Position numbers and translations under genes: made by a program. DNA of 64,000 nucleotides from the sequence record OR424388.1. The stretch is one strand, 5' to 3'. This document shows positions 1,176 through 59,620 of the stretch, in pieces (within the stretch, counting starts at the first letter, position 1; the number at the start of each line of letters is the position of its first letter). Under the pieces are notes generated by a model. It did not search any database. It was not told the origin of the DNA and saw only the letters and a program-made list of their open reading frames with translations. The stretch is from Escherichia phage HEMP5.

Positions 1176-1209
1176 TATTTTTCCTTTCAATTCATGGGTT
1201 AGTAGATTA

Positions 1210-1234
1210 ATTATACAATAAATATATAAAGCAA
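1210..1234 (-). promoter_or_regulatory. MotA-dependent middle promoter for gene 56 (MotA box TGCTTTA, 12-nt spacer, -10 TATAAT)
   Basis: Minus strand reads ..TTGCTTTATATATTTATTGTATAAT.. about 35 nt upstream of the gene 56 ATG. Confidence 0.5.
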
Positions 1235-1246
1235 TAAGGAGGACAT

Positions 1247-1447
1247 ATGGTACAAAAATTAATGGCACTTGTTAATGCCATCAAAGGTAATAAAAAGCGT
1301 ATAGCTTTTACTATTTCTGCTATGGTAGGAATTTTACTCTGGAACTTTATTTTATCACCTGTTGCAATTGCACATGGTATTAATATTCCAGTAGTTACTC
1401 TTGATACATTCGTAGATTTAGCATTCGCTTTAGTTGGGTTAATTTAA
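1247..1447 (+). CDS. possible small membrane protein on the opposite strand (66 aa)
   Basis: Plus-strand ORF with strong AAGGAGG RBS 4 nt before ATG; two hydrophobic segments; lies in the 56-61 intergenic region, convergent with primase; no clear promoter. Confidence 0.3.
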   Translation: MVQKLMALVNAIKGNKKRIAFTISAMVGILLWNFILSPVAIAHGINIPVVTLDTFVDLAFALVGLI

Positions 1448-14677: not shown

Positions 14678-15364
14678 TTAAAAATCGTGGGTAGAATCAG
14701 CTTCAAGAGCTACTACATAATTCGCATGTTCACCTTCAAATTTAGCAGCACCTTGTTTACCTTTTGCCCAGAGCAGAAGTTTATAATTTCCTGGTTGCAT
14801 TTTCATATTTGCCATATTGATAATGAAATTAAATGTATTTTCACCATCATAATCACCAAGAGTCAAAGAATATTTAACACGGGTCAAAGCAGAATCTTCT
14901 ACTTTATTAAAACCGTTAATTACGATTTTACCTTCTTTTACCGTGATAGCAATTGTATCAATTTGCAGACCACGAGATACACGCAACAGTTGTTGAAGGT
15001 CTTCAGCTTTAATTTCAGTAACAACAGATGCTACCGGGAATGGAATTGGTTTATTAGGAGCAACTACTGTACTCGGATCGGCTGCTGGCCAAAAAATTGT
15101 TGAGCGGGCATCAGCAATTTTAATATTTCCATCTTCTGACTGGGAAATTTCTGCATCATCATTAACTAGCGACAGAATACCGAGAAAACCGTTCAAATCG
15201 TAAATTGCTACATCAAAATCAATAACGTCAGAAATATTCGCTTCTGCATAAGTTGTACCATTAACCGCACGAGTCATAATAAATTGACCGGATTTAAGCA
15301 TAATACCAGAGTTAATAGTAGCGAAATTTTTCAGCAGAGCAGTAGTATCTTTAGACAGTTTCAT
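14678..15364 (-). CDS. 45: sliding clamp gp45
   Basis: 228 aa; matches recalled T4 gp45. Confidence 0.95.
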   Translation of the reverse strand: MKLSKDTTALLKNFATINSGIMLKSGQFIMTRAVNGTTYAEANISDVIDFDVAIYDLNGFLGILSLVNDDAEISQSEDGNIKIADARSTIFWPAADPSTVVAPNKPIPFPVASVVTEIKAEDLQQLLRVSRGLQIDTIAITVKEGKIVINGFNKVEDSALTRVKYSLTLGDYDGENTFNFIINMANMKMQPGNYKLLLWAKGKQGAAKFEGEHANYVVALEADSTHDF

Positions 15365-16062: not shown

Positions 16063-17745
16063 TTAAACCATTACAGTAAATCGACCAACTTTCTTCATTT
16101 GAAGGTGCTGACCATATGCTTGTGGGTCATGATCTCTATGCGAAATAACAAAAACATTAGTATTTTTTAAACTATCTAAAATAGTTGAAATAGCTTTTAC
16201 ACCTTCAACATCGGTCGCTGAATCAAAAACTTCATCAAGAATTAGTGTGTTTATTTTAACACCTGAAACTTTTTCAGCAATATCACGCCAAGTAAATAAA
16301 AGAGCAATATCAATTCGTGCTTTTTCACCTTGACTGAATGAAGCATAACTAAAATCTTCACGACCACGGGATTTAATTGTCTCATTAAATTCTTCATCTA
16401 ATGTAAACACATAATCCGCTTCCATTATTTTAAGATAATGGTTAATCTGCTTATTAAATAATGGAATGTACTTTTTAATAATAGCACCTTTAATACCAGA
16501 ATCTTTGAGCATATCAGTCAAAATTCCTCGGTGGTATTTTTCCATTACTAAATTAGTTTTTGTCTTAACAATTTTATCAAGTTCTTCTTGAAGCAGTGCT
16601 ATTTCATCAGCATGGTCAATAAACTCAGAAGATGCTTTTTCTATAGCCGCTTTAACTTTTTTAGCTTTATCTACCGTCGTGATTAGAGATTGCTTTTTAT
16701 TGCGAATATCATTTGCCAACGACTGCTGGGTTTTAATATTATCTCGGTATTCATCAACAAGAACTTTTAAATTATCACGATGTGTTGAAAGCTGTTCAAA
16801 CGAATGCGTGCATTCAGAAACTTTATCTTTAATTTTAGAAACAACTTTATCACCGGAACTTAATTGTGACAAACAGGTTGGACATAATCCACCTTCGTGA
16901 TACATATTAATGACTTTATTATACGAGTCAATTTTTGATTTAATTAAAAATGCTTCTTGACCGATTTTATTAAATGCATCAGTCGGGTCTTCATCTAAAA
17001 CAATATTAACTAATCTTTCATTAGCTTCTTCTATTTCCGATTTTAGCGTTCTAGCTTCTTTTGCCAAATCATCATACATATTTTGAAGACGAGTAAGGTT
17101 GTCACCCGTTAATTTTTTCTGGCGTTCAACGTTATCATTATATATTTTAATTTGTTGGATAATACTATCTTTTTTAACATCAAGCACTTGGTTTTGTGAA
17201 TTTAATTCACGTATTAGTGCTTTATTAAGCTTATCCATTTCAGCTAATGTTCCTACCTCAAGCAGGTCTTCCACAAGCTTTCTTCGTGCAGGGGTCGACA
17301 AACCCATGAAAGGGGTATACCCTGCTGTACCAAGGACAACAATCTGCTTGAAACTGGCATATGACATTCCGATAAGCTGTTCAAATTCTGCTTGGAAATC
17401 TTTACTGCTGGCAGATTCATTAAGACGTGTACCGTTAACGGTGATTTCGAAAACGTTTGGTTTTTGTCCTCTTTTGATATAGTACTTTTTCTCATCATAT
17501 TCCATCCACAGTTCAACTAAAAGTTCTTTCTTATTTGTGCTGTTTATTAATTGACCTTTCTTTACATCACGAAATGGCTTACCAAAAAGCCCAAATGTGA
17601 TGGCTTCTAGCATAGTAGACTTACCACCGCCATTTCGTCCAGTAATAAGAGTTTTTTGAACCTTATCTAATTGAATGTCAATAGGATTTCCACCTACTGA
17701 CATTATATTTTGATACCTAACTCGGTTTAGTTTAAAATTCTTCAC
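16063..17745 (-). CDS. 46: recombination endonuclease subunit gp46 (Rad50/SbcC-like)
   Basis: 560 aa; Walker A GRNGGGKST and zinc-hook CPTC; initiates at GTG overlapping the upstream stop (GTGA). Confidence 0.95.
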   Translation of the reverse strand: MKNFKLNRVRYQNIMSVGGNPIDIQLDKVQKTLITGRNGGGKSTMLEAITFGLFGKPFRDVKKGQLINSTNKKELLVELWMEYDEKKYYIKRGQKPNVFEITVNGTRLNESASSKDFQAEFEQLIGMSYASFKQIVVLGTAGYTPFMGLSTPARRKLVEDLLEVGTLAEMDKLNKALIRELNSQNQVLDVKKDSIIQQIKIYNDNVERQKKLTGDNLTRLQNMYDDLAKEARTLKSEIEEANERLVNIVLDEDPTDAFNKIGQEAFLIKSKIDSYNKVINMYHEGGLCPTCLSQLSSGDKVVSKIKDKVSECTHSFEQLSTHRDNLKVLVDEYRDNIKTQQSLANDIRNKKQSLITTVDKAKKVKAAIEKASSEFIDHADEIALLQEELDKIVKTKTNLVMEKYHRGILTDMLKDSGIKGAIIKKYIPLFNKQINHYLKIMEADYVFTLDEEFNETIKSRGREDFSYASFSQGEKARIDIALLFTWRDIAEKVSGVKINTLILDEVFDSATDVEGVKAISTILDSLKNTNVFVISHRDHDPQAYGQHLQMKKVGRFTVMV

Positions 17746-44943: not shown

Positions 44944-45305
44944 TACAGACTCTCAGTAAAGGTACGAGCGATAACGTCGCGCTGCTGTTCCGGAGTCAGA
45001 GAGTTAAAGCGAACTGCATAACCGGATACACGGATGGTCAGCTGCGGATATTTTTCCGGATGCTTAACTGCATCTTCCAGAGTTTCGCGACGCAGAACGT
45101 TAACGTTCAGGTGTTGACCACCTTCAATTTTAACCGTAGGCTGTGGTTCAATTTCAATTTCACGGGCATGCAAACCATAGAAAATTTCTGGGTCTACAAA
45201 AGAGTCCTCTTTAAAAGTTTTAGAGACAATAATTCGTGCTTGAATACCATCTTCAAAATAAATAGTACCTTTATGCGTGCCTTCAAGAATTTGATATGCT
45301 TTCAT
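44943..45305 (-). CDS. autonomous glycyl radical cofactor (GrcA/YfiD-like, T4 Y06I-type)
   Basis: 120 aa from ATG with GAGAGG RBS; C-terminal about 60 aa matches the E. coli GrcA/PflB glycyl radical domain ([39 protein letters not shown]). Confidence 0.88.
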
Positions 45306-45313
45306 ATAACCTC

Positions 45314-45694
45314 TCAATTAGAAAATAAATTTATCCAAGATTGTTCTTTAATTAAAAATGGCTCAGAATCATATGCCATTAAACTTTGGGTGATTAGTCC
45401 TTTAAAAGGTCCATCAATAAATTCCATGGTAAAATATGGAATTTTATTCATTAATCTTGCATTAGGAGCAGTACACAAAACTCTGCATCCTTTGAATACA
45501 CCTTTTTGTAATTTGTATTGCTTAGGATAAAATTCGCTCAAGACGTTGTTATTTGCCAAAATTTCAAAATGATTCACCAATTTATTTTTAATAGTTTTTG
45601 GCGAAAAATAAAGATATTCGAAAAGTTGCGTATCTGTCATCATTGCATCCCAATTACGAAAAACTGTGGACGAGTAATACCACCAATGCAACAT
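45314..45694 (-). CDS. hypothetical protein
   Basis: 126 aa; ATG start. Confidence 0.65.
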
Positions 45695-58993: not shown

Positions 58994-59001
58994 TATAAAT
59001 A
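58994..59001 (+). promoter_or_regulatory. T4 late promoter TATAAATA for gene 53
   Basis: Exact TATAAATA on the plus strand 29 nt upstream of the gene 53 ATG. Confidence 0.65.
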
Positions 59002-59029: not shown

Positions 59030-59620
59030 ATGCTCTTTACATTTTTTGATCCGATTGAATATGCGGCCAAAACGGTGAATAAAAACGCGCCGACTATTCC
59101 TATGACAGATATTTTTAGAAACTATAAAGACTATTTTAAACGCGCTCTTGCGGGATACCGCTTACGTACTTATTATATCAAAGGTTCACCACGCCCGGAA
59201 GAATTAGCAAATACTATATATGGAAATCCACAGTTGTATTGGGTTTTATTGATGTGTAATGATAATTATGACCCGTATTATGGATGGATTACTTCACAAG
59301 AAGCAGCTTATCAAGCATCTATACAAAAATACAAAAATGTAGGTGGAGACCAAATAGTATATCATGTGAATGAGAACGGTGAAAAATTTTATAATTTAAT
59401 ATCATACGATGATAATCCATATGTTTGGTATGATAAAGGTGATAAAGCTAGAAAATATCCTCAATATGAAGGAGCACTTGCTGCTGTTAATACGTATGAA
59501 GATGCTGTTCTTGAAAATGAAAAACTTCGTCAAATAAAAATAATAGCAAAATCAGACATTAATTCATTTATGAACGACCTTATACGTATAATGGAGAAAT
59601 CTTATGGAAATGATAAGTAA
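59030..59620 (+). CDS. 53: baseplate wedge protein gp53
   Basis: 196 aa; GGAGG RBS. Confidence 0.93.
   Translation: MLFTFFDPIEYAAKTVNKNAPTIPMTDIFRNYKDYFKRALAGYRLRTYYIKGSPRPEELANTIYGNPQLYWVLLMCNDNYDPYYGWITSQEAAYQASIQKYKNVGGDQIVYHVNENGEKFYNLISYDDNPYVWYDKGDKARKYPQYEGALAAVNTYEDAVLENEKLRQIKIIAKSDINSFMNDLIRIMEKSYGNDK

Follow-up and report, generated by a model that had tools for sequence, protein, structure and literature searches.

The DNA analysed here, referred to below as the window, is a stretch of 64,000 nucleotides from Escherichia phage HEMP5 (OR424388.1). Gene 56, which encodes the dCTP pyrophosphatase (dCTPase), lies on the minus strand at 657-1174 and starts at 1174; to its right, also on the minus strand, is gene 61, which encodes the DNA primase (1444-2472). 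Both the sequence and the list of open reading frames place a small ORF between them on the plus strand (1247-1447), which opens with ATG, contains 66 sense codons, and ends with a TAA stop at 1445-1447; its translation is MVQKLMALVNAIKGNKKRIAFTISAMVGILLWNFILSPVAIAHGINIPVVTLDTFVDLAFALVGLI (66 residues). An earlier note on this DNA had described the ORF as antisense-encoded, but this is not so, as it occupies the intergenic gap and has only 4 nt in common with gene 61, with which it is convergent and overlaps at the stop codons. The same note's descriptions of an ORF that ends convergently at the primase stop, and of surroundings encoded on the minus strand, are both accurate; ORFs of at least 120 aa number 59 on the minus strand and 5 on the plus strand, three of the latter lying beyond 59 kb. 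The other two plus-strand ORFs of at least 120 codons are found in the early region, at 14726-15103 and 45060-45530.

The region around the small ORF is AT-rich (29% GC), and across bases 1100-1520 the window matches Shigella phage Sf21 and several other Tequatrovirus genomes with 100% identity. Under this match these records annotate dCTP pyrophosphatase (gene 56), a "hypothetical protein" and DNA primase (gene 61), which marks the window as DNA of a T4-like phage.

As the note had reported, the ATG at 1247 and the 66-codon plus-strand frame are preceded by a Shine-Dalgarno sequence, AAGGAGG, at 1236-1242 (+), separated from the ATG by the 4-nt spacer ACAT. This full seven-base match occurs only once in the 64-kb window when both strands are counted, and that single occurrence is the one before the small ORF; a strong Shine-Dalgarno sequence is present at the equivalent position in every orthologue that we examined. 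In 20,000 dinucleotide-preserving shuffles of 1175-1447, an ATG-initiated ORF of at least 60 codons appeared in 175, and in only 7 of the 20,000 was it accompanied by a 5-mer Shine-Dalgarno sequence. Given how few shuffles produced both a long ORF and a Shine-Dalgarno sequence, chance is an unlikely explanation of the small ORF.

Two leftward elements share this DNA. The first is a candidate MotA-type middle promoter for gene 56 at 1210-1236 (-), composed of the MotA box TATTGCTTTA at 1236-1227, 11 nt, and TATAAT at 1215-1210, and lying approximately 36 nt upstream of the gene 56 ATG. At the level of the motif it has the arrangement expected of such promoters, in which (a/t)(a/t)(a/t)TGCTT(t/c)A precedes a sigma-70-type -10 element by about 12 bp, and it also fits the pattern GCTT(N13-15)TATAAT quoted in the GenBank note of SA21RB, here as GCTT-N13-TATAAT; equivalents of the form GCTTTA...TA(T/G)AAT were found upstream in Mosigvirus and Gaprivervirus. 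Thus the promoter that the note had placed on the strand opposite the ORF is real as a motif, but it covers the Shine-Dalgarno sequence and leader (1210-1236), not the body of the ORF.

The second leftward element is a terminator-like hairpin at 1259-1284 (-), with 11 pairs followed by TTTTTGT, which falls inside codons 5-13 of the ORF and which is annotated in SA21RB as a rho-independent terminator. The gene 61 transcript may terminate at this hairpin, immediately ahead of the gene 56 promoter. The hairpin is found in T4 and is absent from other genera. It was considered as the cause of the conservation of the ORF, and was rejected because it is limited to one genus.

While the note had seen only the leftward promoter, the ORF carries a T4 late-type promoter-like element of its own. 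This element, AATAAATA, lies on the plus strand at 1217-1224, 30 nt before the ATG, and falls within the spacer of the leftward MotA-type promoter. The T4 late promoter consists of TATAAATA at -13 to -6, for which A(-13) is the commonest variant (PMC2988020, PMC1524935), and it is this variant that is present here; it is found in 9 of 50 listed T4 late promoters (PMC2988020). At the motif level, therefore, an element of the type that precedes T4 late genes is situated shortly upstream of the ORF.

The element is only 8 nt long, and is off consensus at -13 in most lineages. Of the 14 distinct upstream sequence types examined, 13 have NATAAATA at -21 to -30 from the ATG, and it is kept in T4, Mosigvirus, Gaprivervirus, Dhakavirus, Marfavirus, Kanagawavirus, Mosugukvirus and distant metagenomic T4-like phages. 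The form AATAAATA is shared by this window, Mosigvirus and JS98, while GATAAATA is found in T4, PM2 and one further genome (L018), and CATAAATA in Gaprivervirus, PEi26 and two others (L024 and L025). The perfect TATAAATA is present in Potts1 and Kosakonia phage 305, and the single exception is phage Moon, which has only ATTAAATA. The spacing of the element is kept relative to the ATG and not to the leftward promoter; indeed, in Gaprivervirus the element overlaps the MotA box.

The same persistence is seen in T4, where the element is retained despite the presence of dam, and of unrelated DNA, upstream. The T4 dam gene sits between gene 56 and the late-promoter element of the small ORF (L004 1847-2626, corresponding to 1175-1246 of the window), and a tblastn search with T4 Dam found no dam gene anywhere in the window. 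From these sequences, dam looks like an insertion, or a loss, directly upstream of the promoter of the small ORF.

On the plus strand of the window NATAAATA occurs at seven sites, two of which precede a Shine-Dalgarno sequence, an ATG and an ORF. One of the two is the site before the small ORF; the other, at 58994, lies before a 196-aa plus-strand ORF (59030-59620) that looks like baseplate gene 53. A copy of AATAAATA at 45257 falls within the plus-strand ORF at 45060-45530.

The direction of the ORF is also compatible with late expression. All T4 early and middle transcripts run counter-clockwise, and only the late ones run both ways (PMC2988020), and the small ORF is opposite in polarity to all of the neighbouring early and middle genes. 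Taken together, the conserved NATAAATA, the A(-13) variant and the rightward polarity lead us to infer that the small ORF is a late gene, with a predicted transcription start at about 1230 and a leader of 17 nt. Judged from these motifs, it would be transcribed rightward by RNA polymerase modified with gp55, gp33 and gp45, from a start that falls within the MotA-dependent middle promoter reading leftward into gene 56, so that both promoters would use the same DNA at different times. If so, T4-type phages can nest a rightward late promoter in a leftward middle promoter, with the same 30 bp serving different forms of the polymerase at different times. No plus-strand terminator was predicted between 1447 and 2700, and since there is no room for one the late transcript would probably continue antisense into gene 61.

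The distribution of the ORF among other phages is broad. A tblastn search with the 66-residue protein matched 692 phage records, with at least 80% coverage in 686 of them; identity was at least 90% in 502 and below 60% in the remaining 190. Nearly all of the matched loci carry the annotation "hypothetical protein" (for example RB32ORF030w in RB51), and products that are 100% identical are annotated in Shfl2, Sf21, CM8 and others. An intact or annotated ORF of 57-70 codons adjoins the primase gene in Tequatrovirus, Mosigvirus, Gaprivervirus, Dhakavirus, Marfavirus, Kanagawavirus, Moonvirus and Mosugukvirus, and each of these eight T4-like genera keeps at least one copy.

Orthologues in Mosigvirus and Gaprivervirus occupy the equivalent position, and are 65-66 aa long with 49-57% identity. 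A further 136 records belong to a second subfamily (B), approximately 20% identical to the first, which holds the position of the ORF in Dhakavirus (JS98), Marfavirus, Kanagawavirus, Moonvirus, Mosugukvirus and others, and distant metagenomic T4-like contigs have a member of 60-67 aa between gene 56 and gene 61. The upstream neighbour is variable: in this window it is gene 56, T4 has dam, and elsewhere homing endonuclease genes or small ORFs take the place; downstream there is nearly always the primase stop, gene 61 being the convergent neighbour in all of the T4-like lineages examined.

The T4 reference (NC_000866, AF158101) itself contains an intact 66-codon ORF at NC_000866 17738-17938, with both AAGGAGG and GATAAATA, situated in a 309-bp "gap" between dam and gene 61 where no CDS is annotated. 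Its GATAAATA lies at 17709-17716, and the predicted start, window position 1230, corresponds to about 17722 in NC_000866. The copies in JS98 and PEi26 are likewise without annotation.

Gapriverviruses carry two paralogues in tandem, subfamily A followed by subfamily B (L008 1495-1692 and 1701-1901). Copy B is intact in UPEC01, VR25 and VR26, and is split by frameshifts in DK-13, TH40 and a third genome (L016); in DK-13 the split copy is followed by a homing endonuclease gene. The disruption of copy B by frameshifts in some Gapriverviruses suggests that the two copies are redundant. In the UPEC01 record copy B is wrongly labelled "DNA packaging ATPase".

The earlier note had proposed that conservation of the ORF be compared with synonymous drift in related phages, and we carried out this comparison. 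Differences between the window and Mosigvirus at codon positions 1, 2 and 3 number 28, 12 and 42, respectively. Between genera pN was 0.30 and pS was 0.79, while within genera pN/pS was approximately 0.1-0.5. Across 22 diverse DNA sequences the mean entropy at codon positions 1, 2 and 3 was 1.21, 0.75 and 1.48 bits (p = 6e-10 for position 3 versus position 2), position 2 thus being the least variable. Length variants among the full-length homologues (P0025 and P0070) are in frame, and across the eight genera the frame stays open and the Shine-Dalgarno sequence is kept at protein identities as low as approximately 20%.

The note had offered two alternatives, a genuine small membrane protein or a chance ORF arising from the AT-rich context of the promoter, and it is the former that the conservation, the purifying selection, and the retention of the Shine-Dalgarno sequence and late-promoter element uphold. 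That the stretch is purely regulatory, serving as gene 56 promoter and as gene 61 3' end or terminator with an accidentally open frame, is highly improbable: the frame is short and the DNA is AT-rich, a middle promoter and a terminator-like hairpin are indeed present, and the curated T4 reference has no annotation here, but the distribution, the codon pattern of the substitutions and the in-frame length variants lead us to reject this reading, as the frame and Shine-Dalgarno sequence persist in eight genera, position 2 varies far less than position 3 with pN well under pS, the hairpin is confined to one genus, and homologues exist in prophages that lack gene 56 and gene 61. The ORF at 1247-1447 (+) is thus very probably a real, late-expressed gene for a single-pass inner-membrane protein. 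It would add a gene, probably a late one, to a block of the T4-type genome otherwise read as purely early and middle, and one that is missing from the T4 reference. As a sequence the ORF is already known, being a hypothetical protein in hundreds of genomes and a member of PHROG 2024; a literature search that included T4 ribosome profiling, start-site mapping and the ORF and gene names returned nothing on it.

Given that the late transcript would run into gene 61, it is also conceivable that selection has acted on the transcript as an antisense RNA that shuts down gene 61 mRNA late in infection, the peptide being secondary. The ORF adjoins or overlaps the gene 61 stop in nearly all lineages, no terminator is predicted on the plus strand from 1447 to 2700, and some regions of the T4 genome are known to be transcribed from one strand at one time and from the other at another (PMC2988020). 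However, the amino-acid sequence is under strong purifying selection and the Shine-Dalgarno sequence is conserved, there are family members without a primase neighbour, and in DK-13 a homing endonuclease gene lies between the ORF and gene 61 while the ORF is intact. We therefore regard a primary role as antisense RNA as very unlikely, although an antisense effect could operate alongside the protein.

An AlphaFold2 model of the protein built on a 26-sequence alignment (pLDDT 78) contains helices at residues 2-12, 16-42 and 52-63. The N-terminal helix is basic and amphipathic, while the central segment, with a maximum 19-residue Kyte-Doolittle hydropathy of 2.0, is hydrophobic enough to span the membrane at approximately residues 19-42. 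The C-terminal helix (52-63, approximately 12 residues) is hydrophobic and amphipathic but too short to span a bilayer; of the two hydrophobic helices that had been noted both exist, but only the one at about 19-42 crosses the membrane.

Lysine and arginine residues number five on the N-terminal side of the membrane helix and none on the C-terminal side, and the same bias runs through the family, with 4-8 on the N side in 9 of 10 members and 0-1 on the C side in 10 of 10. This bias predicts a single-pass inner-membrane protein with its N-terminus in the cytoplasm and its C-terminus in the periplasm, in which the basic amphipathic helix would lie on the cytoplasmic face and a tail of approximately 24 residues would follow the membrane helix in the periplasm. 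The most conserved residues, W32, N33, P38 (which is invariant), G44, P48 and an acidic residue (D/E) at position 52, map to the periplasmic half of the membrane helix and the loop that follows it. The pattern W32-N33...P38...G44...P48...(D/E)52 would be a likely contact site for a partner, either the protein itself or another membrane protein.

Small membrane proteins of this kind are easily overlooked. Because there is no lysine or arginine after residue 18, tryptic proteomics would yield at most one peptide here. Digestion would leave just LMALVNAIK and a hydrophobic fragment of 48 residues, so that a failure to detect the protein in earlier proteomic work would be uninformative.

By sequence the protein belongs to PHROG 2024 (E = 1.4e-31, residues 2-66 aligned with positions 1-65 of the 65-position profile). 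The Tevenvirinae hypothetical proteins of the RB32ORF030w type in this family are the same protein, with no difference, and no function has been assigned to the family. No characterised relative was found in Pfam (E<=10), in NCBIfam or by a PDB sequence-profile search. With Foldseek, BFVD returned only the protein's own family and the PDB gave no match to a characterised fold. When 1.84 billion representative proteins were searched exhaustively with a profile, only 16 members of 33-70 aa were recovered, none of them named and most from T4-like contigs, and a third homologue search with a broader alignment brought no new contexts.

The only hint as to function comes from outside the T4-like phages. 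Three of the 16 were found in temperate prophages of siphovirus type (L032, L033 and L021), which come from E. coli, from a Pseudescherichia MAG and from a single metagenomic contig; the E. coli prophage occupies the yegD site, and was present there in 25 of the 5426 complete genomes of this species. These prophages have neither gene 56 nor gene 61, and their homologues also match PHROG 2024. In each of them the homologue belongs to a shared module (L032 6636-9714, L033 2166-8174 and L021 534-6082) found past the tail-tip gene, where the late region ends; the module comprises a protein of approximately 180-200 aa, a protein of approximately 105-112 aa, and the membrane-protein homologue. The two companion proteins have no counterpart in the window and no informative family.

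In L032 and L033 the module is preceded by a DUF2730 protein, an opposite-strand lysozyme gene and a GIY-YIG (homing) endonuclease gene. In L021 the module follows a DUF2730-like coiled-coil protein with a transmembrane segment and an endonuclease VII gene, and no lysozyme was seen. A small coiled-coil protein with an N-terminal transmembrane segment therefore precedes the homologue in all three. The Mu gp25 "releasin", a regulator of lysis, is a DUF2730 protein (PMC9239132). On the evidence of gene order, then, the prophages hint at co-expression with late genes, in proximity to lysis genes.

A small, membrane-embedded and probably late phage protein might be a holin or pinholin, accumulating in the inner membrane until it forms lethal lesions that release the endolysin. 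The protein has the requisite small size and at least one transmembrane domain (66 aa, helix at approximately 19-42), there are polar residues inside the membrane helix (N33, and D27 in subfamily B), the prophage homologues lie within approximately 2 kb of a lysozyme of cytoplasmic type (though none was seen in L021), and the name "Holin" is attached to a UniRef entry from phage OE5505 and is encountered also through BFVD. However, that label has no visible experimental basis, and other features are not those of a holin. There is a single full membrane helix, whereas pinholins and SAR-type proteins have two, the first of them releasable, and here only a single segment has the length needed to cross the bilayer. 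The charged, hydrophilic C-terminal domain of holins is absent, the last 24 residues containing no lysine or arginine and two aspartates and being otherwise hydrophobic, with the rest of the family alike (0-1 K+R on the C side); a conserved dual-start motif is absent as well. Searches against holin family profiles gave no Pfam match (E<=10), and the sole PHROG match was 2024, whose function is unassigned. Moreover, phages of the T4 type already possess the T holin. A true holin is thus unlikely, if somewhat less so than an antisense RNA.

The T4 holin T and antiholin RI are late proteins that are associated with the inner membrane and extend in part into the periplasm, and their genes do not form a cassette but are dispersed over the T4 genome; T has 218 aa and a large periplasmic domain, while RI has a releasable signal-anchor and a globular periplasmic domain. 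Our family searches detected no sequence similarity to either, and the protein described here has only approximately 24 periplasmic residues. The class II holins and pinholins (S21 68 and T7 gp17.5) are closer in size (approximately 65-70 aa) and in hydrophobicity, and they too are late phage proteins, but they carry either a second membrane helix or a C-terminus that is charged and cytoplasmic, whereas here a single membrane helix follows a basic N-terminus and the C-terminus is hydrophobic and uncharged. The Mu gp25 releasin is likewise a small membrane protein with a single pass, one that regulates lysis but makes no holes (PMC9239132). In two of the prophages (L032 and L033) a DUF2730 protein is encoded a few genes before the homologue. 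Releasin belongs to a different family and has a long cytoplasmic coiled coil after its N-terminal helix, while this protein is almost without a soluble domain.

An alternative that fares better is that the protein is an accessory membrane protein of exclusion or counter-defence, which blocks the entry of DNA from a secondary phage or neutralises a host defence that acts at the membrane. The prophage homologue sits at the far end of the late region among genes of the moron type (lipoproteins and, in one contig, a protein with a RelA/SpoT domain), the site in T4-like phages is a variable accessory region that has received dam and homing endonucleases, and there are tandem paralogues of which one copy is decaying. 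On the other hand, the T4 exclusion genes imm and sp are early and on the other strand, while this gene has only a late-type promoter; the prophage copies are co-oriented and tightly packed with late genes, with no separate promoter; and seven diverse family members gave no match to PADLOC defence profiles (E<=1). Nor would a host-specific accessory gene usually be kept, in at least one copy, by all eight of the T4-like genera examined. T4 Imm itself, an early-gene product of 83 aa that acts on the envelope from the inner membrane, has two membrane helices, is encoded on the other strand and has no homology to this protein, the resemblance being that both are small inner-membrane proteins of T4-type phages. 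We accordingly consider a role in exclusion or counter-defence doubtful, but less so than that of a true holin.

We place first the proposal that the protein, without being a holin itself, modulates late envelope events in an accessory capacity, for example the timing of lysis or the control of the holin. This is a guess, and given that no characterised family matches, it leans on weak indications from the gene neighbourhood of three related prophages; in T4-like phages the small ORF has no linkage to any lysis gene. Ranked by plausibility, then, a modulator of late envelope events or lysis stands first, though itself only a tentative choice, followed by exclusion or counter-defence, a true holin, and lastly an antisense RNA.

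For T4, the most thoroughly studied phage of all, the corresponding proposition, slightly more speculative still, is that it would carry an unannotated late gene (NC_000866 17738-17938) whose product is an unrecognised component of late envelope control. In that case the protein might be a partner or regulator of the holin and lysis-inhibition machinery, or else a new late-acting membrane effector. Whatever its precise function, the family is common to the enterobacterial Tevenvirinae examined and to some temperate prophages, and since at least one copy is kept in all eight of the T4-like genera examined, a role in fitness is suggested for this small gene.

Scans of bacterial genomes found nothing with P0117 and one locus with P0118. 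P0118 itself, a distant family member (L023 129-1383), lies on a short metagenomic contig directly upstream of the RelA/SpoT-domain protein (352 aa), and its closest genomic relative, L033, sits in the prophage module instead.
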